Shown here: piece after piece, positions 2-55,514 of the stretch
Layout: the number at the start of each line of letters is the position of its first letter
How positions within the stretch are numbered: the first letter of the stretch is position 1
Assembly (NCBI RefSeq): GCF_001677475.2
Contig: NZ_CP015229.1
Direction: 5' to 3' (one strand)
From: Escherichia coli
GTDB lineage: Bacteria; Pseudomonadota; Gammaproteobacteria; Enterobacterales; Enterobacteriaceae
DNA: 64,000 nt
Notes under the pieces: model-generated
Seen by the model: the letters and a program-made list of their open reading frames with translations, nothing else
What the model was told of the DNA's origin: nothing
Database searches by the model: none
Program-made: the position numbers and the translations under genes

Positions 2-298
2 AAACCGCTTTTCGCGCTGATAGATGCGATGAACGAAGCTCTCGACAAGCAACGCTGGCGACGTCTTCCGGCGCTGCATCAGCAGTTGATGCGTCAGTTT
101 CACGATTACGCGGCGGCTGAAACTGACGCGCAACAGCTTGGTGCGGTGAAATCGCAACTTCATGCCGCGTTTAGCGCATTAATTGCCCGCCGCGAGCAGC
201 GTGCCGACGTGCTGAAAGCGCGCATGGAGCTGCATCAGCAGCGCCAGGAAGGCGTGCTGGCCTACTCAATTGTTCATTTACTTTCGGAGAAGCCATGA
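2..298 (+). CDS. lafD: Lateral flagellar (Flag-2) protein, LafD-like; 5' end probably lies upstream of the window
   Basis: Frame is open back to base 2; stop overlaps the next gene's ATG (ATGA at 295-298); sits directly upstream of FliK/FliL/sigma-28/MotA/MotB homologues. Name assigned by position only. Confidence 0.45.
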   Translation, partial: KPLFALIDAMNEALDKQRWRRLPALHQQLMRQFHDYAAAETDAQQLGAVKSQLHAAFSALIARREQRADVLKARMELHQQRQEGVLAYSIVHLLSEKP

Positions 299-2579: not shown

Positions 2580-3443
2580 ATGCAAAAAATATTAGGTTTA
2601 CTGGTGGTGCTCGGCTGCGTATTTGGCGGTTATTTTGAAGCGGGCGGGCAATTAGTGGCTATCTGGCAACCGGCGGAGATGATCATTATTTTGGGTGCCG
2701 GTTTCGGGGCGATGATTATTGGTAACCCGAAACATGTGCTGAAAGAGATTGCCCATCAAATTAAAGGCGTGATCAGTAAAAAACAGCTTGGGCCGGAATT
2801 TCAGCGCCAGCTATTAATGTGCCTGTATGAGTTGCTCGAAATGGTGCAAAACGGCGGCCTGCGCATGCTGGATCAGCATATCGAGCAGCCGGAGGAGAGC
2901 ACTATTTTCCAGAAATACCCGCTGGTGTTAACCCAGAAACGGCTGGTGACCTTTATTGCCGATAACTTTCGCCTGATGGCGATGGGTAAGATTGACGCTC
3001 ATGAACTGGAAGGCATTCTCGATCAGGAACTGGACACCGCTGAAGAGTCGCTGTTAACGCCGTCGCGCTCGCTGCAACGTACCGCCGAAGCGATGCCGGG
3101 ATTTGGTATTTGTGCAGCAGTGTTGGGGATCATCATCACCATGCAGTCGATTGATGGATCTATCGCCCTGATTGGCCTGAAAGTGGCGGCAGCGCTGGTA
3201 GGGACGTTTTTAGGCGTCTTTATCTGCTACTGCCTGATGGACCCGCTCGCCAACGCCATGGAACAACAGGCGCGGGCGGAGCATTCATTGTTGGAGTGCG
3301 TGCGTACCGTGCTGGTGGCGCAGGCGGGCGGTAAACCGACGCTGCTGGCGGTGGACGCCGGGCGTAAGCTGCTGCATCTGGCGTCCAAACCGACCTTCGC
3401 CAACCTCGACGCGTGGGTGAATGCGATGCTGGAGCAAGAATAA
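2580..3443 (+). CDS. lafT: Flagellar stator protein, MotA-like (LafT)
   Basis: 287 aa, multiple transmembrane helices, MotA/TolQ/ExbB-type C-terminal membrane segment; immediately followed by a MotB-like gene. Confidence 0.8.
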   Translation: MQKILGLLVVLGCVFGGYFEAGGQLVAIWQPAEMIIILGAGFGAMIIGNPKHVLKEIAHQIKGVISKKQLGPEFQRQLLMCLYELLEMVQNGGLRMLDQHIEQPEESTIFQKYPLVLTQKRLVTFIADNFRLMAMGKIDAHELEGILDQELDTAEESLLTPSRSLQRTAEAMPGFGICAAVLGIIITMQSIDGSIALIGLKVAAALVGTFLGVFICYCLMDPLANAMEQQARAEHSLLECVRTVLVAQAGGKPTLLAVDAGRKLLHLASKPTFANLDAWVNAMLEQE

Positions 3444-3445
3444 GC

Positions 3446-4369
3446 ATGAGAAAGACGGGCAACCGCCGCGAGCGTGGGGCAAAAACCACCATCGTCCGGC
3501 GGCAGATCAAAAAGAATCATGCCGGGCATCACGGCGGGGCGTGGAAGGTGGCGTTTGCCGACTTTACTTTGGCAATGATGGCGCTGTTTATGACCCTGTG
3601 GATTGTCAACAGCGTCAGTAAATCCGAGCGTGAAAGTATTATCGCCGCGCTGCACGGGCAGTCGATTTTTAACGGTGGCGGGCTGTCGCCGTTAAATAAA
3701 ATCAGCCCGCCTCATCCGCCGAAACCTGCCACCGTGGCGGTGCCGGAAGAGACGGAGAAGAAAGCGCGCGACGTCAACGAGAAAACGGCGCTACTGAAGA
3801 AGAAATCTGCCACCGAGCTTGGAGAGCTGGCAACCAGTATCAACACCATTGCCCGTGATGCGCATATGGAAGCGAATCTGGAGATGGAGATTGTCCCGCA
3901 GGGATTACGCGTGCTGATTAAAGACGACCAGAACCGCAATATGTTTGAACGCGGCAGCGCGAAGATTATGCCGTTCTTTAAAACGCTGCTGGTGGAGTTA
4001 GCGCCAGTGTTCGACTCGCTCGATAACAAAATTATTATTACCGGGCATACTGATGCGATGGCCTACAAAAGCAATATCTACAACAACTGGAACCTTTCGG
4101 GCGATCGCGTGCTTTCGGCCCGTCGGGTGCTGGAAGAGGCCGGAATGCCGGAAGATAAAGTGATGCAGGTGAGCGCGATGGCGGACCAGATGTTGCTGGA
4201 TGCCAAAAATCCGCAAAGCGCGGGCAACCGGCGCATTGAGATTATGGTGCTGACTAAAAGCGCGTCCGATACGCTGTATCAATACTTTGGTCAGCATGGG
4301 GATAAAGTGGTGCAGCCGCTGGTGCAAAAGCTGGATAAGCAGCAGGCGCTTTCGCAGCGAACGCGTTAA
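3446..4369 (+). CDS. lafU: Flagellar stator protein, MotB-like with OmpA-type peptidoglycan-binding domain (LafU)
   Basis: Single N-terminal TM (WKVAFADFTLAMMALFMTLWIV) and C-terminal OmpA-like domain (IITGHTDAMAY...NRRIEIMV). Start chosen at the ATG 3446, 2 nt after the lafT stop; the longest ORF begins at 3413. Confidence 0.8.
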   Translation: MRKTGNRRERGAKTTIVRRQIKKNHAGHHGGAWKVAFADFTLAMMALFMTLWIVNSVSKSERESIIAALHGQSIFNGGGLSPLNKISPPHPPKPATVAVPEETEKKARDVNEKTALLKKKSATELGELATSINTIARDAHMEANLEMEIVPQGLRVLIKDDQNRNMFERGSAKIMPFFKTLLVELAPVFDSLDNKIIITGHTDAMAYKSNIYNNWNLSGDRVLSARRVLEEAGMPEDKVMQVSAMADQMLLDAKNPQSAGNRRIEIMVLTKSASDTLYQYFGQHGDKVVQPLVQKLDKQQALSQRTR

Positions 4370-4405
4370 ATGCTGAATCTTTACGCATTTCTCAAACCCT
4401 GAAAT

Positions 4406-4425
4406 CACTGTATACTTTACCAGTG
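4406..4425 (+). promoter_or_regulatory. LexA (SOS) box upstream of dinB
   Basis: CACTGTATACTTTACCAGTG fits CTG-N10-CAG, about 15 bp upstream of the dinB ATG. Confidence 0.85.
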
Positions 4426-4439
4426 TTGAGAGGTGAGCA

Positions 4440-5495
4440 ATGCGTAAAATCATTCATGTGGATATGGACTGCTTTTTCGCCGCGGTGGAGATGCGCGACA
4501 ATCCCGCCCTGCGCGATATCCCTATTGCTATTGGCGGCAGCCGCGAACGTCGGGGGGTGATCAGCACCGCCAATTATCCTGCGCGTAAATTTGGCGTACG
4601 TAGCGCTATGCCGACAGGGATGGCGCTCAAATTATGCCCACATCTCACCTTGCTTCCGGGGCGCTTTGACGCCTACAAAGAAGCCTCAAATCATATCCGT
4701 GAAATCTTCTCGCGCTACACCTCGCGCATTGAACCGTTGTCACTGGATGAAGCCTATCTCGATGTCACCGATAGCGTCCATTGCCACGGTTCTGCGACCC
4801 TCATCGCCCAGGAAATCCGCCAGACGATCTTCAACGAGCTGCAACTGACGGCGTCTGCGGGCGTGGCACCAGTAAAGTTTCTCGCCAAAATCGCCTCCGA
4901 CATGAATAAACCCAACGGCCAGTTTGTGATTACGCCGGCAGAAGTTCCGGCATTTTTACAAACCTTGCCGCTGGCAAAAATTCCCGGCGTCGGCAAAGTC
5001 TCGGCGGCAAAACTGGAAGCGATGGGGCTACGGACCTGCGGTGATGTGCAAAAGTGTGATCTGGTGATTCTGCTTAAACGCTTTGGCAAATTTGGCCGCA
5101 TTTTGTGGGAGCGTAGTCAGGGGATTGACGAGCGCGACGTTAACAGTGAACGGTTGCGAAAATCCGTCGGCGTGGAACGCACGATGGCGGAAGATATTCA
5201 TCACTGGTCTGAATGTGAAGCGATTATCGAGCGGCTGTATCCTGAACTTGAACGCCGTCTGGCAAAGGTAAAACCTGATTTACTGATTGCCCGCCAGGGG
5301 GTGAAATTAAAGTTCGATGATTTTCAGCAAACCACTCAGGAGCATGTCTGGCCGCGGCTGAATAAAGCTGACTTAATCGCCACCGCGCGTAAAACCTGGG
5401 ATGAACGCCGTGGCGGGCGCGGTGTGCGTCTGGTGGGGCTGCATGTGACGTTGCTTGACCCGCATATGGAAAGACAACTGGTGCTGGGATTATGA
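4440..5495 (+). CDS. dinB: DNA polymerase IV (Y-family translesion polymerase)
   Basis: 351 aa; N-terminus [33 protein letters not shown] is the E. coli DinB sequence as recalled. Confidence 0.97.
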
Positions 5496-5546
5496 TGTAT
5501 ACTATTATGTCTATTCTGGTGTGCATTATTATGAGGGGATCACTGT

Positions 5547-5840
5547 ATGCATCGAATTCTCGCTGAAAAATCGGTCAATATCACTGAGTTACGTAAAAAC
5601 CCAGCTAAATACTTTATTGATCAACCGGTTGCGGTTCTTTCTAATAATCGCCCCGCAGGATATCTCTTAAGTGCCAGCGCATTTGAAGCGTTAATGGACA
5701 TGCTTGCTGAACAAGAGGAGAAAAAACTGGTGAAGGCGCGCTTCCGTCCGAGTGCCGCAAGATTAGAGGAAATTACACGCCGCGCTGAACAATATCTTAA
5801 TGATATGACGGATGATGATTTCAATGACTTTAAGGAATAA
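5547..5840 (+). CDS. yafN: Type II antitoxin YafN
   Basis: 97 aa, Phd/YefM-like antitoxin, immediately upstream of yafO in the dinB operon. Confidence 0.88.
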   Translation: MHRILAEKSVNITELRKNPAKYFIDQPVAVLSNNRPAGYLLSASAFEALMDMLAEQEEKKLVKARFRPSAARLEEITRRAEQYLNDMTDDDFNDFKE

Positions 5841-5842
5841 GG

Positions 5843-6241
5843 ATGCGGGTATTCAAAACAAAACTTATTCGCCTGCAACTTACAGCAGAGGAACTTGATG
5901 CGTTAACGGCGGATTTTATTTCCTATAAGCGTGACGGTGTTTTGCCAGATATATTTGGTCGCGATGCACTCTACGACGACTCGTTTACCTGGCCATTAAT
6001 CAAATTTGAGCGAGTTGCTCATATTCATCTGGCAAATGTGAATAATCCATTTCCGTCACAGTTGCGCCAATTCAGCAGAACGAATGACGAAGCGCATTTG
6101 GTATATTGTCAGGGTGCGTTTGATGAGCAAGCATGGTTGCTCATTGCCATTCTGAAACCTGAACCTCATAAACTGGCTCGAGATAACAACCAAATGCATA
6201 AAATTGGGAAAATGGCAGAAGCGTTTCGCATGCGTTTTTGA
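5843..6241 (+). CDS. yafO: Type II toxin YafO (ribosome-dependent mRNA interferase)
   Basis: 132 aa, 2 nt after the yafN stop; conserved dinB-yafN-yafO-yafP order. Confidence 0.88.
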   Translation: MRVFKTKLIRLQLTAEELDALTADFISYKRDGVLPDIFGRDALYDDSFTWPLIKFERVAHIHLANVNNPFPSQLRQFSRTNDEAHLVYCQGAFDEQAWLLIAILKPEPHKLARDNNQMHKIGKMAEAFRMRF

Positions 6242-6250
6242 ATTTATATT

Positions 6251-6703
6251 ATGAATAACATACAAATAAGAAACTATCAGCCTGGCGATTTTCAGCAACT
6301 ATGCGCTATTTTCCTTAGAGCGGTTACGATGACCGCCAGTCAGCATTATTCACCACAACAAATTGCCGCCTGGGCGCAGATTGACGAATCTCGCTGGAAG
6401 GATAAACTCGCGAAATCACAAGTGCGGGTTGCCATCATTAATGCACAACCGGTTGGTTTTATTTCCCGCATTGAACATTATATCGATATGTTATTTGTTG
6501 ACCCTGAATACACCCGCCGTGGGGTTGCCAGCGCTTTGTTAAAACCTTTGATTAAGTCTGAATCCGAACTTACAGTGGACGCCAGCATAACCGCAAAACC
6601 ATTTTTTGAACGTTATGGTTTTCAGACAGTTAAGCAGCAGCGCGTTGAATGCCGGGGAGCGAGGTTTACTAATTTTTATATGCGTTATAAACAGCAACAT
6701 TAA
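6251..6703 (+). CDS. yafP: GNAT-family N-acetyltransferase YafP
   Basis: 150 aa, GNAT-like motif region (RRGVASALL); last gene of the dinB operon. Confidence 0.88.
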   Translation: MNNIQIRNYQPGDFQQLCAIFLRAVTMTASQHYSPQQIAAWAQIDESRWKDKLAKSQVRVAIINAQPVGFISRIEHYIDMLFVDPEYTRRGVASALLKPLIKSESELTVDASITAKPFFERYGFQTVKQQRVECRGARFTNFYMRYKQQH

Positions 6704-6872
6704 ATCCAGCTTGCAATGAAAATAACGCCCGCCTAATATGTGCGCGTTTTGTTATTCCACAAACTGCAAGGAGGTAAATCATGACAAATCCTTTATCAAT
6801 GACTCTTTGCAGACCTTTCCAGGATTAATTCTTTTTTTTCTTGCCCTGGATCCGTCTGCCATTTCCTGATTT

Positions 6873-7008
6873 TTATATTTATATACTCTAAATAATTCGA
6901 GTTGTAGGAAGGCGACAAGCGAGTGAATCCCTAGGAGCTTACGAAAGTAAGTGACTGGGGTGAACGAACGCAGTCGTAGTACATGCAACTTGAAGTATGA
7001 CGAGTATA
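6873..7008. repeat. ERIC/IRU element (enterobacterial repetitive intergenic consensus), copy 1
   Basis: Contains GTGAATCCCTAGGAGCTTAC and AAGTAAGTGACTGGGGTGAACG, matching the ERIC primer sites; imperfect palindrome; second copy at 25753-25880. Confidence 0.85.
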
Positions 7009-7009
7009 A

Positions 7010-8161
7010 ATGGAATGGTACATGGGCAAATATATTCGTCCCTTATCCGATGCGGTATTTACCATCGCATCTGATGACCTGTGGATCGAGAGTTTAGCGA
7101 TCCAACAATTACACACCACGGCAAATTTACCCAACATGCATCGCGTAGTGGGGATGCCAGATTTACACCCCGGACGTGGCTACCCGATTGGCGCAGCGTT
7201 CTTCTCCGTAGGTCGTTTTTACCCGGCGCTGGTCGGCAATGATATCGGCTGCGGCATGGCGCTATGGCAAACAGATATTCTCGTGCGCAAGTACAACGCC
7301 GATAAGTTTGAAAAGCGATTATCAGCTTTGGATGACGTTGCTGAAGAAAGCTGGCTGGAGGAAAACCTGCCGTCAGCGTTTGCACTACATCCGTGGCGCA
7401 GCTCGCTTGGCTCCATCGGCGGTGGCAATCACTTCGCTGAACTGCAACAGATTGATCAAATTATCGACGCGGAACTGTTTGCACTGGCAGGTCTGGATGC
7501 GCAGCATCTGCAACTGCTGGTTCATAGCGGATCGCGTGGTCTGGGGCAGTCTGTTTTACAAAAACATATTTCCACATTCTCGCATCATGGTTTGCCGGAA
7601 GGCAGTGATGACGCGATGCGCTATATCGTGGAACATGACGATGCGCTGGCGTTTGCTCGCATTAATCGCCAGATGATCGCCCTGCGCATAATGCAACAGG
7701 TGAAGGCTACGGGAAGTCCGGTTCTGGATGTGGCGCATAACTTCATTACCGCGAGTAAAATTGGCGATCAACAAGGCTGGTTACACCGTAAAGGGGCTGC
7801 GCCAGATGACAGTGGCCTGGTGGTTATCCCCGGTTCACGCGGTGATTACTCATGGCTTGTACAGCCTGTCAGTAGCGAAGAAATATTGCATTCGCTGGCG
7901 CATGGGGCAGGACGTAAATGGGGGCGCACCGAGTGCAAAGGACGGCTGGCAGCGAAATACACGGCGACGCAACTTACGCGTACTGAACTTGGCAGCAGGG
8001 TAATTTGTCGCGATAAACAGCTCATCTTTGAAGAGGCGCCGCAGGCCTATAAATCGGCAGAAAGCGTGGTGCAATGTCTGGTGCAGGCCGGTTTAATTAT
8101 TCCTGTCGCGCGGCTGCGCCCGGTGCTGACACTCAAAAACAGTGGAGGGAAAAAAGGATGA
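7010..8161 (+). CDS. RtcB-family RNA ligase paralogue (RtcB2-like), full length
   Basis: 383 aa; GGGNHF motif and HNF motif region typical of RtcB; stop overlaps the prfH start (ATGA at 8158-8161). The K-12 counterpart (ykfJ) is a pseudogene. Confidence 0.8.
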
Positions 8162-8772
8162 TCTTGCTACAACTCTCCTCAGCCCAGGGACCGGAAGAAT
8201 GCTGCCTCGCAGTCAAAAAGGCGTTGGACAGGCTGATTAAAGAAGCATCCCAACAGCGTGTTGCGGTAACGGTGCTGGAGACAGAAACGGGCCGCTACTC
8301 TGATTCGCTGCGTTCAGCGCTGGTTTCTCTGGATGGCGACAACGCATGGGCATTAAGCGAAAGCTGGTGCGGCACTATTCAGTGGATTTGTCCGAGTCCG
8401 TATCGGCCTCATCATGGGCGCAAAAACTGGTTTCTGGGCATTGGGCGTTTTACCGCTGATGAGCAGGAACAATCGGATGCAATCCGTTATGAGACGCTGC
8501 GTTCGTCGGGGCCGGGCGGTCAACATGTCAATAAAACCGACTCGGCGGTACGCGCCACGCATCTGGCTACCGGAATTAGTGTGAAGGTTCAGTCAGAGCG
8601 CAGCCAGCATGCTAACAAACGGCTGGCGCGATTGCTGATCGCCTGGAAGCTGGAACAACAGCAACAGGAAAATAGCGCGGTGCTGAAATCGCAGCGGCGA
8701 ATGTTCCATCACCAGATTGAACGTGGCAACCCGCGACGGACATTTACAGGGATGGCTTTTATCGAAGGATAA
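8158..8772 (+). CDS. prfH: Peptide chain release factor homologue PrfH
   Basis: 204 aa from [15 protein letters not shown]; GGQ motif present ([17 protein letters not shown]); the longer ORF from 8074 overlaps rtcB and is taken as an extension artefact. Confidence 0.88.
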
Positions 8773-8784
8773 TGAAGGATGAAA

Positions 8785-8817
8785 CTGCCGGAAGGCGATT
8801 AAACGCCATCCGGCAGC
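8785..8817. terminator. Bidirectional hairpin between convergent prfH and pepD
   Basis: Inverted repeat CTGCCGGAAGGCG...CGCCATCCGGCAG between two convergent stops. Confidence 0.6.
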
Positions 8818-8828
8818 AAATCAAATAA

Positions 8829-21422: not shown

Positions 21423-22226
21423 ATGTCTATTCAGGGGCGACATTTGCCAAATTATCTAAACTGGCTGATGCAGAATACGCTACCCGGTCAGGTGCTGCTC
21501 CAGTCATGGCTTACCCGCAACGGCGTAGATCGTAAGCTCTCTTACCTCTATGTCCAGAATGGCTGGCTCAGGCGGATCGCTCACGGCGTATACTGCCGGA
21601 CGGGTCGTGAACCGGACTGGGTGGACGCGGTTTACTGCCTGCAAACACAGTGGGAAAAGCCAGTACGGGTGGCGGGGCTAACCAGCCTTGCGCTTCAGGG
21701 CCATGCGCACTATACCGAACCGGGTAAGCCGCAAATCTGGCTCGCGCTTCCGGCTTACGTCAAACTGCCGGGATGGTTTGCTGCCTTCGAACAATCTGCA
21801 ACATTTATCACGCTGTATACATCGGGCCTTACCGTTGATGTCACGTCATTTACTACGGAACTGAAAATTGGCGACCGGCAGTTAGCAGGCAGTGCCCCGG
21901 AACTGGCCGCGTATGAGATCGCCTGCGGCGTTCCTTCGTTGATATCGTTCGAACATGCCGATGCTCTGTTTCAGGGGATGAATCTTCTCAGCCCGCGTAA
22001 ATTGCAGGCGTTACTCTGCGCCAGTCATTCGGTTAAAACCAACCGGGTGATGCTTTACCTTGCCCGGCGTAATGGACACCCTTATTTTCAGTATATTGAT
22101 CAAAGCGGTATAGAAACAGGTACGGGAAAGCGGCAAATCATACCCGGCGGCTGGCTGGAGCCGGATTATCAAATTACTGTTCCACGCGAATTTAAACCGG
22201 AAGGAGTCGAAGATGGATCTGCGTGA
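21423..22226 (+). CDS. AbiEi-family antitoxin / transcriptional regulator (type IV TA, abortive infection)
   Basis: 267 aa; N-terminal winged-helix pattern (LTRNGVDRKLSYLYVQNGWLRRIAHGVYCRTG) typical of AbiEi; overlaps the downstream nucleotidyltransferase gene by 14 nt. Confidence 0.65.
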   Translation: MSIQGRHLPNYLNWLMQNTLPGQVLLQSWLTRNGVDRKLSYLYVQNGWLRRIAHGVYCRTGREPDWVDAVYCLQTQWEKPVRVAGLTSLALQGHAHYTEPGKPQIWLALPAYVKLPGWFAAFEQSATFITLYTSGLTVDVTSFTTELKIGDRQLAGSAPELAAYEIACGVPSLISFEHADALFQGMNLLSPRKLQALLCASHSVKTNRVMLYLARRNGHPYFQYIDQSGIETGTGKRQIIPGGWLEPDYQITVPREFKPEGVEDGSA

Positions 22227-23133
22227 TAGCTATACCCGGCAGGTCAAACTGTTGATGGCCGCTCTGCCGCATGTGGCGAAGGAGTCCTGTTTCGCGTTGA
22301 AAGGCGGCACGGCAATCAATTTGTTTGTGCAGGATTTTCCCCGTCTGTCGGTGGATATCGATCTGGCGTATAAGACTTTTGCGGATCGCGATACCGATTT
22401 GACGGCGATCAACGACGCTTTGAAGAGAATTACTGCATCGCTGAACAGTAAACCGGGGATTACCGCGATTCGGCAGGAAAATAAAACGGATGAAAAGCGC
22501 ATCATTGTGAATACGGCTGATGCCCAGATTAAGATCGAGGTTAGTCCGGTCTGGCGTGGGCTGTTGTTGCCTCCGGCAGAAATGTCGGTGTGCGAACGTG
22601 TGGAAATGGAGTATGGCTTCACCACTATGAGTGTCGTTTCGCTGGCGGATCTTTATGGCGGTAAAATCTGCGCAGCGCTTGATCGTCAGCACCCGCGCGA
22701 TCTGTTTGATGTGCTGAATATGCTGGAGAAACCGGGACTGATGCGGGAGATCTTTGACGGTTTTCTTTGTTATCTGGCAGGCCATCCCCGCCCCATTGCC
22801 GAGTTGCTGGCCCCAAACTGGGATACAGAGCGGATCACGACGCTGTATGCCCAGGAATTTTCGGGGATGACTCAGCAGGAAACGTCGCTGGAATCGCTGC
22901 TGTCAGTAACGACTTTGCTGCCGCAGGCGTTGAAGTCACATCTTACGGATCTGGATCGCGAGTTCTTGCTCAGTTTTAAGCAAAACAGCCCTGACTGGTC
23001 GCGGTATCGCTATCCTGAAATTCAGCATCTTCCGGCTATTCGCTGGAAGCAACGCAATCTGGCGGTGCTTAAAGATAAAAATCCGGCGAAGTATGTGGCG
23101 GCGGTGAATAAGCTAGAGAGGGTGCTGGAGTAA
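22213..23133 (+). CDS. AbiEii/AbiGii-family nucleotidyltransferase toxin (DUF1814)
   Basis: 306 aa; N-terminal LKGGTAINLF and DIDLAY motifs of the AbiEii nucleotidyltransferase fold; translationally coupled to the upstream AbiEi-like gene. Confidence 0.75.
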   Translation: MDLRDSYTRQVKLLMAALPHVAKESCFALKGGTAINLFVQDFPRLSVDIDLAYKTFADRDTDLTAINDALKRITASLNSKPGITAIRQENKTDEKRIIVNTADAQIKIEVSPVWRGLLLPPAEMSVCERVEMEYGFTTMSVVSLADLYGGKICAALDRQHPRDLFDVLNMLEKPGLMREIFDGFLCYLAGHPRPIAELLAPNWDTERITTLYAQEFSGMTQQETSLESLLSVTTLLPQALKSHLTDLDREFLLSFKQNSPDWSRYRYPEIQHLPAIRWKQRNLAVLKDKNPAKYVAAVNKLERVLE

Positions 23134-25752: not shown

Positions 25753-25880
25753 ATATACTCTAAATAATTCAAGTTGCAGGAAGGCGACAAGTGAGTGAAT
25801 CCCCAGGAGCTTACAAAAGTAAGTGACTGGGGTGAATGAACGCAGTCGCAGCACATGCAACTTGAAGTATGACGAGTATA
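25753..25880. repeat. ERIC/IRU element, copy 2
   Basis: Over 90% identical by eye to the copy at 6873-7008 (GTGAATCCCCAGGAGCTTAC ... AAGTAAGTGACTGGGGTGAATG). Confidence 0.85.
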
Positions 25881-26527: not shown

Positions 26528-27412
26528 TCAGATTTTCAATGTATCAATGACCATCCGCAGAGCGGGGGAGACGTTGCGATGAGGGTAATAGAGAAACAAT
26601 CCCTCCATTCGCAGGCTGTAACGCTGCAACACTCTGATAAGCTTACCGTGTTCTAAATCATCCGCGACCAGTTCAACAGGAACATAGGCCAATCCGAGGC
26701 CCAGCCGGGCTGCTTCTGCTTCCATATAGCTGTCGGATAAGGCCCATTGCCCTTCAGGGCGATGAGTGATTTTTTTATCATCCTGATTGAGTTCCCACTG
26801 GTATACGCTGCCGTCGGCAAACTGATAGGCGATACAGGGATGCGCCTTTAAATCCGCCGGGGTTTGCGGAAAACCATAGCGACGAAAATGTTCCGGAGTC
26901 CCCACAATTGCCATCTCCATATCGGGCGTGATGCGTACCGCGACCATGCCCTGACCGACTTCAGGCCCCAGGCGGACACCTGCATCGAATCTTTCCTCGA
27001 TGATATCGACGAACCGGCTCTCATTTATCAGTTCAAGCCGGATATCAGGATATCGCTGTTTAAATACCGCCAGCTTTGGCAGCAGGCATTTATCAATCGC
27101 GTGCTGGCTGGCATTGATACGCACCGTGCCGGAGGGCGTCTCTCGATAGTGCGCCAGCGTGGCAAGCCCAAGATCTAACATTTCAAATCCAGATGCCGTC
27201 TTCTGGTAGAGCTGCTCGCCTGCTTGTGTCAGCGACAGTTTACGCGTGGTGCGCACTAGCAGCTGGACGCCCAGCCTTTCTTCAAGCTCGCGAACAGAAC
27301 GGCTGACTCCTGACTGAGCAAGACCCAGCCGCTGAGCTGCTGCGGTAAAGCTGCCTTCCCGCACCACCTGCATAAACAGGTACAGCTCGTTGTAGTTCTC
27401 CCTTTTCGCCAT
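26528..27412 (-). CDS. LysR-family transcriptional regulator (position of K-12 yagP)
   Basis: 294 aa, HTH (FTAAAQRLGLAQSGVSRSVRELE); divergent from a hydrolase/MFS gene pair. Confidence 0.85.
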   Translation of the reverse strand: MAKRENYNELYLFMQVVREGSFTAAAQRLGLAQSGVSRSVRELEERLGVQLLVRTTRKLSLTQAGEQLYQKTASGFEMLDLGLATLAHYRETPSGTVRINASQHAIDKCLLPKLAVFKQRYPDIRLELINESRFVDIIEERFDAGVRLGPEVGQGMVAVRITPDMEMAIVGTPEHFRRYGFPQTPADLKAHPCIAYQFADGSVYQWELNQDDKKITHRPEGQWALSDSYMEAEAARLGLGLAYVPVELVADDLEHGKLIRVLQRYSLRMEGLFLYYPHRNVSPALRMVIDTLKI

Positions 27413-54629: not shown

Positions 54630-55514
54630 ATGGAGGGACTGACAGTGGAATTTTCCGTATTAAGTAACAATCTGAAAATGCCGATGATGGGATTTGGTGT
54701 TTTTCAGGTTACCGATAAAAACGTGTGCAAACAGTCAGTGTTGAACGCTATCCGCACGGGTTATCGACTCATCGACACTGCAGCGGTATACGGTAATGAA
54801 GATGCCGTCGGTGAAGCCGTTCGTGAAGCTATATCTGAAGGTTTATGTACCCGAGATGAGTTATTTATAACGTCTAAATTGTGGGTGCAGGATATGTTGA
54901 ATCAGGATACGGCAGCAGCAGGTATTGAAGCATCATTAAAAAAATCGGGACTAGAATACTTCGACCTCTATTTATTGCATCAGGCTATGCGCGATTATTT
55001 CAGTGCGTGGCGTGCACTCGAAGATGCCTATGAAGAGGGCAAATTAAAAGCAATTGGGGTTTCCAATTTCTACCCTCATGTTCTGGCGAACTTTTGTGAA
55101 ACGGTAAGAGTTAAACCGATGGTCAACCAGGTCGAGTTGCATCCCTATTTTGCCCAACCAGAGGCGCTGGCAACCATGAAGTATTATAACGTGCAGCCTG
55201 AAGCATGGGCTCCGTTAGGTGGGGGACGACATAAACCCTTTGAAAATAATCTGCTTCAGAGTATTGCAGATGCCCATCAAAAATCGATTTCTCAAGTCAT
55301 TCTGCGTTGGAATATTCAACGGGGAGTGGTCGTTATTCCGAAATCGATACATCAACAGCGTATCGAAGAAAATTTTGCTATCTGGGATTTCTCACTGACA
55401 GAGAAAGAAATGGCACAAATTAGTTCGCTTGATTTGGGTTATGTTGGGGAGTCGGTAAAACATTTTAATCCTGAATTTGTTCGTGGTTGTCTTGCTGTAA
55501 AAATACATGATTGA
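54630..55514 (+). CDS. Aldo-keto reductase, paralogue of the gene at 47750-48601
   Basis: 294 aa, MPMMGFGVFQVTD...[14 protein letters not shown]; exact start uncertain. Confidence 0.8.
   Translation: MEGLTVEFSVLSNNLKMPMMGFGVFQVTDKNVCKQSVLNAIRTGYRLIDTAAVYGNEDAVGEAVREAISEGLCTRDELFITSKLWVQDMLNQDTAAAGIEASLKKSGLEYFDLYLLHQAMRDYFSAWRALEDAYEEGKLKAIGVSNFYPHVLANFCETVRVKPMVNQVELHPYFAQPEALATMKYYNVQPEAWAPLGGGRHKPFENNLLQSIADAHQKSISQVILRWNIQRGVVVIPKSIHQQRIEENFAIWDFSLTEKEMAQISSLDLGYVGESVKHFNPEFVRGCLAVKIHD

Follow-up and report, generated by a model that had tools for sequence, protein, structure and literature searches.

The segment at positions 4406-6703 of the window, that is, of the whole 64,000-nucleotide stretch of Escherichia coli DNA analyzed here, is very probably (roughly 0.9) the canonical E. 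coli dinB-yafN-yafO-yafP operon. No feature of the sequence speaks against this reading. This operon is already known, and the present genome is one more E. coli strain with the textbook SOS operon.

Gene content and comparison with K-12

The four genes lie on the plus strand, and all four proteins were assigned by scores above the curated cut-offs of NCBIfam equivalog models. These genes are dinB, encoding DNA polymerase IV (4440-5495; 351 aa; NF002677, 545 bits against a cut-off of 256); yafN, encoding an antitoxin (5547-5840; 97 aa; NF007300, 194 bits against 99); yafO, encoding a predicted ribosome-dependent mRNA interferase toxin (5843-6241; 132 aa; NF007377, 245 bits against 153); and yafP, encoding a GNAT N-acetyltransferase (6251-6703; 150 aa; NF007338, 319 bits against 146). 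In the YafN-YafO pair, the small antitoxin gene is located directly 5' of the toxin gene, and both match curated equivalog models. The spacing is minimal, as originally described, with gaps of 51 nt between dinB and yafN, 2 nt between yafN and yafO, and 9 nt between yafO and yafP; terminator-like sites from dinB to yafP were found only inside coding sequences, at chance level.

The operon of K-12 MG1655 (b0231-b0234) consists of the same four genes in the same order and with the same intergenic distances. The original prediction of an intact operon is confirmed in gene identities, order and coordinates, all of which match K-12, and the annotation comparison proposed as its check gave the same answer, with all family models above cut-off and DNA 97-99% identical to that of K-12 (97.3-99.0% per gene). 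The flanks differ: the window has an intact lafT/lafU on the upstream side and an intact rtcB-prfH on the downstream side, whereas in K-12 these are pseudogenes, with a 1,032-bp deletion in rtcB-prfH that corresponds to window positions 7228-8259.

The changes in dinB relative to K-12 are mostly synonymous, and the protein sequences are 99.4% identical, with two substitutions, M210I and Q342H. Residues D8, F13, Y79, D103 and E104 and the C-terminal QLVLGL, which we take to represent the catalytic acidic residues, the steric gate and the clamp-binding motif (QLVLGL), are all intact. YafN is 98% identical to its K-12 counterpart (two substitutions), YafO 98.5% (2 of 132 residues changed) and YafP 96% (six substitutions, among them W59R and W138R). 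Given the six non-synonymous against five synonymous codon changes in YafP, two of them Trp-to-Arg, the two substitutions in the dinB-yafN spacer, and the common loss of yafNO (48% of complete E. coli genomes), the operon could be thought present but decaying, for example, with YafP or the yafNO control region impaired in this strain. Such decay is very improbable: all four reading frames are full length, with no frameshift or premature stop, the YafP score of 319 bits is far over the cut-off of 146, and R138 is the residue of the Klebsiella homologue. Five of the YafP substitutions, W59R and W138R included, were not found in two other E. coli alleles compared.

LexA box and promoters of the operon

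A consensus scan detected a dinB promoter-like site on the plus strand at 4389-4416, with the -35 element TTCTCA, a 16-nt spacer and the -10 element TATACT (4411-4416). The -10 element is overlapped by a LexA box, the 20-mer CACTGTATACTTTACCAGTG at 4406-4425 (core CTG-N10-CAG at 4408-4423), the 3' end of which is 14 nt from the dinB ATG. With perfect CACTG...CAGTG arms, the box is fairly called strong, as it had been, and its right half-site reads CCAG instead of ACAG. The 70 nt 5' of dinB, including the box, are identical to those of K-12 MG1655. The loose consensus CTGT-N8-ACAG, with at most one mismatch, occurs 26 times in the window against 17.5 expected and, being barely enriched, proves nothing by itself. 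The sole exact match to the stricter ACTGTAT-N7-CAGT in the window is the dinB site, and about 0.45 matches to this pattern are expected per window with at most one mismatch.

The original prediction drew on established knowledge, and SOS induction of the operon, driven by the dinB promoter, has indeed been published (PMC2814082, PMC3105422, PMC7781912). From the sequence identity with K-12 and the published K-12 work, we infer that the operon is SOS-inducible in this strain: LexA bound at the box over the dinB -10 would repress transcription, and DNA damage would cause LexA to be cleaved and the four genes to be transcribed together, yielding translesion polymerase IV, the YafN antitoxin, the YafO toxin and the YafP acetyltransferase. 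The yafNO genes would also be driven from a proximal promoter at the dinB-yafN junction, autoregulated by YafN. The plus-strand region 5467-5546, which comprises the end of dinB and the dinB-yafN spacer and contains the promoter-like site TGGAAA-18-TATGAT (5467-5496; consensus scan), appears to correspond to this published promoter; here, the spacer differs from K-12 by the two substitutions mentioned above.

Induction of yafNO by mitomycin C proceeds only from the dinB promoter, the second promoter being autoregulated (PMC2814082), and YafO cuts ribosome-bound mRNA 11-13 nt past the start codon (PMC7781912). In other SOS-linked E. coli loci, namely, dinJ-yafQ, symE/symR, tisB/istR and hokE, a toxin that halts translation or growth is likewise under LexA control (PMC2814082, PMC7781912), but unlike these, yafNO lacks its own functional LexA box and is SOS-induced solely as a passenger of the dinB promoter (PMC2814082). 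The operon is known in four-gene and two-gene forms (PMC3105422). The four-gene form, to which the window belongs, is present in 52% of the complete E. coli genomes, and yafNO is missing from 48% (n=5,426). The CFT073-type two-gene dinB-yafP operon (PMC3105422) and the dinB-GNAT pair of Klebsiella share with the window the succession of an SOS-type dinB, a YafP-family acetyltransferase gene and rtcB-prfH, but both are without yafNO, and in these, dinB and yafP abut or overlap.

The rtcB-prfH unit and its leader

Downstream of the operon, on the same strand, rtcB (7022-8161) encodes an RtcB2-type RNA ligase (379 aa; NF007153, 629 bits) that is 93% identical to typical E. coli RtcB2 and contains H294, and prfH (8158-8772; 204 aa; TIGR03072, 325 bits) overlaps rtcB by ATGA. 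The GGQ motif of PrfH is invariant in the alignment. A scan of genome contigs with the PrfH alignment picked up mostly RF1/RF2 genes, via the GGQ pattern, and true prfH at only about 12 of the 80 loci; enterobacterial and Pseudomonas-group loci were found by exact-protein look-up, and the RF1/RF2 loci were reused as negative controls.

The unit has a promoter-like site of its own at 6711-6739 (plus strand; TTGCAA-17-TAATAT, followed by the GC-rich GTGCGCG) with conserved spacing: a TTGNNN-16..18-TANNNT site at a fixed distance from the leader Shine-Dalgarno sequence was present in 20 of 25 leaders, compared to about 5% of shuffles. Next on the same strand is a 15-codon leader ORF, MTNPLSMTLCRPFQD (6781-6828), with the Shine-Dalgarno sequence AAGGAGG at 6768-6774. 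A putatively translated ORF of 13-15 codons behind a strong Shine-Dalgarno sequence was found in every gammaproteobacterial and betaproteobacterial locus examined. The leader covariance model scored 101 bits at 6753-6908 of the window and yielded 16 matches in 1.05 Mb, all directly 5' of rtcB; the 68 control loci gave no match.

The stop codon of the leader ORF is enclosed by hairpin P1 (6809-6859, plus strand), in which GCAGAC (6809-6814) and CCAGG (6819-6823) pair with CCTGG (6845-6849) and GTCTGC (6854-6859). The outer helix of P1 is 100% paired among 18 sequences, with one pair represented by A-U in 9, G-C in 8 and G-U in 1, and its covariation of 0.217, against 0.143 in shuffles, was reached by none of 500 shuffles. 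The segment TGCCATTTCC (6857-6866, plus strand) is complementary to the rtcB ribosome-binding region GGAATGGTA (7012-7020). This helix, P2, is paired in 88% of cells (n=18 sequences) with little covariation, and minimum-energy folding also predicts it for the leaders of Salmonella, Klebsiella and Kangiella. In P0, the leader Shine-Dalgarno sequence pairs with leader codons 9-11; P0 and P2 are 88-91% paired and almost invariant, and covariation support is limited to P1 among the leader helices. Folding with a masked ribosome footprint was used to search for a leader switch, and the effect on accessibility of the rtcB ribosome-binding site was small (0.33 for the free leader, 0.41 when codon 1 was occupied and about 0.32 when the ribosome stood further along), so that no mechanism is claimed from it.

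In the window, the leader is interrupted by a 123-bp ERIC/IRU repeat (6884-7006; ends TACTC...GAGTA; flanked by TA at 6882-6883 and 7007-7008), inserted into the loop that connects the pairing segment to the rtcB ribosome-binding site. Like ERIC elements in general, which measure about 125 bp and occur in several copies per enterobacterial genome, the repeat is an imperfect palindrome with dispersed copies and the ERIC core sequence, and the ERIC2 primer (primer sequences taken as in PMC3696847) matches 6945-6966 with one mismatch. The site is empty in Klebsiella, Salmonella, Pragia and an Escherichia-like metagenome contig, and ERIC copies occur in 2-16 places per E. coli genome (median 9). 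The hairpin formed by the repeat folds at -53.3 kcal/mol (z = -8.7). We considered this hairpin before rtcB as an rRNA mimic or small RNA and rejected the idea, given that it is an ERIC repeat inserted at TA, absent in relatives and present in about nine places per E. coli genome. The repeat also explains the match of the hairpin to Rfam V_AS5 (E = 7e-7, below threshold; 12 nt in common with 16S rRNA helix 44).

Compared by description, the rtcB-prfH leader resembles PA5471.1 of Pseudomonas aeruginosa, its closest known counterpart. In both cases, a short leader ORF (13 codons in PA5471.1, 13-15 here) precedes a gene of the RtcB family, belonging to one and the same cluster (PRK09588), and prfH comes next; the P. 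aeruginosa gene order is PA5471.1, armZ (PA5471, RtcB-like) and PA5470 (prfH). Close Pseudomonas-group relatives match the leader model at 74-81 bits, with the same motif as in E. coli. PA5471.1 couples ribosome stalling to expression (PMC3516279, PMC12057347, PMC13041342), and according to a review, ykfJ of K-12 is reportedly inducible by 4-azaleucine (PMC3516279). In the P. aeruginosa model, transcription is attenuated at terminators located about 250 bp 5' of armZ. The leader ORF of Enterobacteriaceae, by contrast, stops about 60-70 nt short of rtcB; terminator-like sites were not found, and it is the ribosome-binding site of rtcB that is covered by the pairing. The E. coli leader differs additionally by the ERIC insertion. 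A terminator hairpin of the PA5471.1 type (segments 3:4), the formation of which depends on the leader being translated to its end, was not found in the spacer; there, the partner of the conserved 3' helix is the rtcB ribosome-binding site. Therefore, a translational mode is possible, and the leader may work like PA5471.1 but via translation rather than termination. A literature search found no mention of the leader peptide sequence, and the E. coli RtcB2-PrfH literature consulted contains no discussion of the leader, whereas the P. aeruginosa counterpart is well studied (antibiotic-induced efflux). Regulation of rtcB-prfH is probably located in a conserved leader that is unrecorded in E. coli annotations.

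Proximity of the dinB operon and rtcB-prfH

The end of yafO is 0.77-0.78 kb from the start of rtcB (7010 or 7022), in agreement with the 0.8 kb originally given for the distance of YafO upstream of the rtcB-prfH module. There, the proximity was offered as context only, with no link asserted.

Transcripts from the dinB promoter could conceivably pass yafP into the rtcB-prfH leader, such that DNA damage would raise rtcB-prfH mRNA and the SOS regulon would reach ribosome repair. All six genes share one strand, the yafP stop is followed after just 7 nt by the next promoter-like -35, and scans of the spacer (6704-7021) found no intrinsic terminator-like site on the plus strand, so that some read-through from the dinB promoter would be possible; moreover, the order dinB, then rtcB-prfH, is kept in Escherichia, Klebsiella, Salmonella, Citrobacter, Cronobacter and Kosakonia. 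We nevertheless consider regulation by read-through unlikely, because rtcB-prfH is accompanied by a promoter-like site and leader of its own wherever it occurs, with dinB as a neighbor or not, and because the spacer contains no LexA-like site by loose or strict pattern scans. A read-through transcript would still include the leader, which is expected to keep expression low, and the searchable literature, including one supplement, reports no SOS induction of ykfJ or prfH.

In Salmonella, Cronobacter, Kosakonia and Citrobacter, the gene order is dinB, rtcB, prfH and pepD, and Klebsiella has the same genes plus a yafP-like GNAT gene between dinB and rtcB. None of these has yafNO at the locus; among the genera sampled, yafNO is found there only in Escherichia. 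In Pragia, Entomomonas, the Pseudomonas group and Ralstonia, rtcB-prfH is located in unrelated neighborhoods and has the same leader. Judging by this distribution, rtcB-prfH behaves as a separate unit, since its promoter-like site and leader accompany it where dinB is not a neighbor. With the conserved promoter and leader that rtcB-prfH carries, the position of the dinB operon beside it looks like inherited synteny rather than a functional association.

Another proposal is that YafO-cleaved messages leave stalled ribosomes that are rescued by PrfH, or that YafO-induced stalling on the leader ORF activates rtcB-prfH, with selection keeping the modules together. The modules are adjacent, the YafO cut site 11-13 nt past the AUG (PMC7781912) falls within the 15-codon leader ORF, and the related P. 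aeruginosa leader responds to stalling, as K-12 ykfJ reportedly does to 4-azaleucine (PMC3516279, PMC13041342). This pairing is highly improbable, however, with yafNO missing at the locus in every non-Escherichia genome examined and retained in K-12 despite the deletion in rtcB-prfH. Furthermore, PrfH of the E. coli type, which has no C-terminal tail, is described as specific for ribosomes with a damaged decoding center, not for non-stop ribosomes (PMC12829566). Of the 5,426 complete E. coli genomes, 2,830 have yafNO and 2,674 an intact rtcB-prfH. Were the two independent, about 1,395 genomes should have both, but only 611 do; the corresponding odds ratio, about 0.07, is confounded by phylogeny (counts: both, 611; yafNO only, 2,219; intact rtcB-prfH only, 2,063; neither, 533). 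Taken together, the genome comparisons and the population counts speak against a specific link between YafO and RtcB/PrfH.

We deem very unlikely a broader scheme, in which rtcB-prfH would be controlled by an ERIC-split, PA5471.1-like leader (with its own promoter-like site, 15-codon ORF and competing helices) that senses stalled or damaged ribosomes and is fed by the SOS operon, either via read-through from dinB or via a YafO cut in the leader ORF that removes the 5' pairing partner. If this scheme were true, DNA damage would prime ribosome repair.

In itself, the finding of dinB-yafNOP in this strain is nothing new. Its examination removes the tempting but unsupported story of a toxin and a ribosome-repair module as a functional pair, and points to the conserved leader as the probable site at which the ribosome-repair genes are regulated.

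The SOS operon at dinB

The genes dinB (4440-5495), yafN (5547-5840), yafO (5843-6241) and yafP (6251-6703), detected as open reading frames on the plus strand, are separated by gaps of 51, 2 and 9 nt, in agreement with the original prediction of a toxin-antitoxin pair and yafP following closely behind dinB. The gene assignments were upheld by model search, in which all four products scored far above the curated cut-off of their own NCBIfam equivalog, and by alignment with K-12 MG1655, where the genes have equal lengths and 97.3-99.0% DNA identity, with two amino acid changes each in DinB, YafN and YafO and six in YafP. DinB retains D8, F13, Y79, D103, E104 and the C-terminal QLVLGL. The 70 nt 5' of dinB are identical to K-12; a consensus scan located a promoter-like site on the plus strand (TTCTCA-16-TATACT, 4389-4416), and the predicted LexA box is present as the 20-mer CACTGTATACTTTACCAGTG (4406-4425), which matches the K-12 site, overlaps the -10 hexamer and stops 14 nt short of the dinB start.

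A loose LexA consensus with at most one mismatch yields 26 matches versus 17.5 expected in 64 kb and is uninformative at this scale, whereas the only exact match to the stricter ACTGTAT-N7-CAGT in the window is the dinB site. What speaks for the LexA box is where it lies, over the -10 hexamer, together with the perfect CACTG/CAGTG arms and the identity with the characterised K-12 site. With one mismatch, the stricter pattern also occurs at 21634-21651, 22432-22449, 26821-26838 and 54777-54794, making five sites in the window, including that of dinB, versus 0.45 expected.

In K-12, the rise in yafNO mRNA after mitomycin C requires the dinB promoter, and a second promoter directly 5' of yafN is autoregulated by YafN (PMC2814082). 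YafO cuts ribosome-bound mRNAs 11-13 nt past the start codon (PMC7781912). The acetyltransferase YafP modulates the genotoxicity of nitroaromatic compounds, and the operon exists in E. coli in four-gene and two-gene (dinB-yafP) forms (PMC3105422). With a coverage of at least 80% required, we detected the yafNO segment in 2,830 of 5,426 complete E. coli genomes (52%), in agreement with the published 57-60%. Judged by its sequence, 4406-6703 is this known, already described SOS operon; from the sequence identity, we infer SOS inducibility and YafO toxin activity in this strain.

The non-synonymous load is the highest in YafP, which carries I22L, E51D, W59R, W138R and P148Q compared with both K-12 and strain GMF065; R138 is also the residue of the Klebsiella homolog. 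The dinB-yafN spacer (5496-5546) differs from K-12 by two substitutions (TGTATATTC to TGTCTATTC and GGGTAT to GGGGAT); this is the region to which published work assigns the autoregulated promoter of yafNO, with its LexA-like box that is not functional. NCBIfam NF007300 labels YafN a 'type I toxin-antitoxin system antitoxin', apparently an annotation slip spreading into RefSeq records, because YafN is the protein antitoxin of a type II system. Immediately 5' of dinB are full-length lafT (motA-like, 2580-3443) and lafU (ending at 4369), lateral-flagellar (Flag-2) genes of which K-12 has only a lafU pseudogene beside the lfhA remnant; Citrobacter arsenatis has the same Flag-2-to-dinB junction.

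YafO and the neighbouring rtcB-prfH genes

The proximity of yafO to rtcB-prfH, put at about 0.8 kb in the original prediction, was confirmed (0.78 kb from the end of yafO to rtcB). Both downstream genes are intact in the window: rtcB (7022-8161) encodes a 379 aa RtcB with H294 kept and 93% identity to typical E. coli RtcB2, and prfH (8158-8772) encodes a 204 aa PrfH containing GGQ. K-12 has a 1,032-bp deletion corresponding to 7228-8259.

The gene order is dinB, a yafP-like GNAT gene, rtcB, prfH, pepD in Klebsiella, and dinB, rtcB, prfH, pepD in Salmonella, Cronobacter, Kosakonia and Citrobacter. None of these five genera has yafNO at this locus, which, among the genera sampled, carries it only in Escherichia; therefore, the older adjacency is that of dinB with rtcB-prfH. 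In Pragia, Entomomonas, two Pseudomonas-group species and Ralstonia, the neighborhoods of rtcB-prfH are unrelated. Intact rtcB-prfH was found in 2,674 of the 5,426 complete E. coli genomes and co-occurs with yafNO in 611, versus about 1,395 under independence (raw odds ratio of about 0.07, confounded by shared ancestry), showing that neither module needs the other. PrfH of the E. coli type, without a C-terminal tail, is described as specific for ribosomes with a damaged decoding center; a different PrfH subfamily rescues non-stop ribosomes as well (PMC12829566).

Synteny, population counts and PrfH specificity argue against a specific relationship between YafO and RtcB/PrfH. Read-through from the dinB promoter into rtcB-prfH could still occur, because no terminator was detected between yafP and rtcB and the next -35 follows the yafP stop after a gap of only 7 nt, and the leader ORF described below might conceivably be a target of YafO; both are unlikely as explanations of the gene arrangement. 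Rather, rtcB-prfH has the appearance of a self-contained unit, responsive to stalled ribosomes, that lies downstream of dinB by happenstance.

The flanks of rtcB-prfH are K-12-like (97-98% identity); central rtcB, especially 7500-7900, is only 82-85% identical to a typical intact E. coli allele, and the best full-length match to 7022-8772 among the 5,426 genomes does not exceed 92.7%, suggesting that the allele is unsampled or has arisen by recombination. Another ATG in the rtcB frame is found 12 nt 5' of the annotated start (7010-7024; MEWY-MGK); TGGAATGG within this segment is conserved as far as Betaproteobacteria, and a role in ribosome binding or pairing explains it better than a coding role. 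In some E. coli strains, among them GMF065 (positions 6034-6802 of its locus, L001, corresponding to 8773-8828), a gene for a metal-dependent hydrolase and a small hypothetical gene lie between prfH and pepD; both are absent from the window.

A conserved leader upstream of rtcB

The segment between yafP and rtcB contains a promoter-like site (TTGCAA-17-TAATAT, 6711-6739) with a GC-rich stretch behind it; a 15-codon leader ORF (6781-6828) behind a strong Shine-Dalgarno sequence; a hairpin (6809-6859) whose 5' arm is the 3' end of this ORF; and a pyrimidine-rich segment (6857-6866) whose sequence complements that of the rtcB ribosome-binding region (7012-7020). The same arrangement was found in Enterobacterales, Entomomonas, Kangiella, Pseudoalteromonas, the Pseudomonas group and Ralstonia, and in diverged form in Massilia; a metagenome pattern search gave 28 matches, 25 of them followed by an RtcB reading frame. 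In each of the 18 aligned leaders the outer helix of the hairpin is paired, and it covaries, one pair being A-U in nine, G-C in eight and G-U in one; the other two proposed helices are compatible but nearly invariant. The conserved CUUUGCAG is in another reading frame in two lineages and, therefore, it is the RNA and not the peptide that is under selection. The promoter-like site is at a fixed distance from the leader Shine-Dalgarno sequence in 20 of 25 leaders versus about 5% of shuffles. A covariance model built on the 18 leaders and run on 1.05 Mb produced 16 matches, all directly 5' of rtcB, including the window (101 bits) and K-12, which retains the leader 5' of the ykfJ pseudogene; the 68 RF1/RF2 control loci gave no match, nor did the prfH loci of Bacteroidota and Alphaproteobacteria. 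The segment 6711-7021 is predicted to be a conserved, unannotated rtcB-prfH leader of Gamma- and Betaproteobacteria, located only upstream of rtcB.

The single match in an Rfam scan, a sub-threshold one to V_AS5 (6881-7004), covers a very stable hairpin (-53.3 kcal/mol, z = -8.7 on folding) and is accounted for by a 123-bp ERIC/IRU repeat (6884-7006; ends TACTC...GAGTA, TA duplicated; one mismatch to the ERIC2 primer); V_AS5 itself may be an ERIC-type repeat. Mimicry of 16S rRNA helix 44, with which 12 nt are shared, was rejected given that the hairpin is the ERIC repeat. The insertion is absent at this site from Klebsiella, Salmonella and Pragia, and the empty site is visible in an Escherichia-like metagenome contig; it falls in the loop separating the leader's pairing segment from the rtcB ribosome-binding site. 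E. coli genomes have a median of nine ERIC copies; a second core in the window (25817-25838) matches ERIC2 with two mismatches. Entomomonas and Pseudoalteromonas have unrelated insertions, also in loops of the leader.

The literature on E. coli RtcB2-PrfH that we searched contains no mention of native regulation of rtcB-prfH. In Pseudomonas aeruginosa, armZ (PA5471) is RtcB-like and belongs to the same PRK09588 cluster, PA5470 is prfH, and the 13-residue leader peptide PA5471.1 links armZ/PA5470 expression to ribosome stalling; in K-12, ykfJ can reportedly be induced by 4-azaleucine (PMC3516279, PMC12057347, PMC13041342). Because of the armZ/PA5470 match, the stalling-coupled leader and ykfJ inducibility, the E. 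coli leader is best read, by comparison with the published description, as a putative relative of PA5471.1. Unlike PA5471.1, it has no terminator-like site, none being found in the yafP-rtcB spacer, and its conserved 3' helix covers the rtcB ribosome-binding site, which points to control that would be translational rather than transcriptional. Folding with a masked ribosome footprint changed accessibility only slightly, so the leader mechanism is one that we infer. With the operon itself already known, the more useful by-product of this analysis is the adjacent leader.
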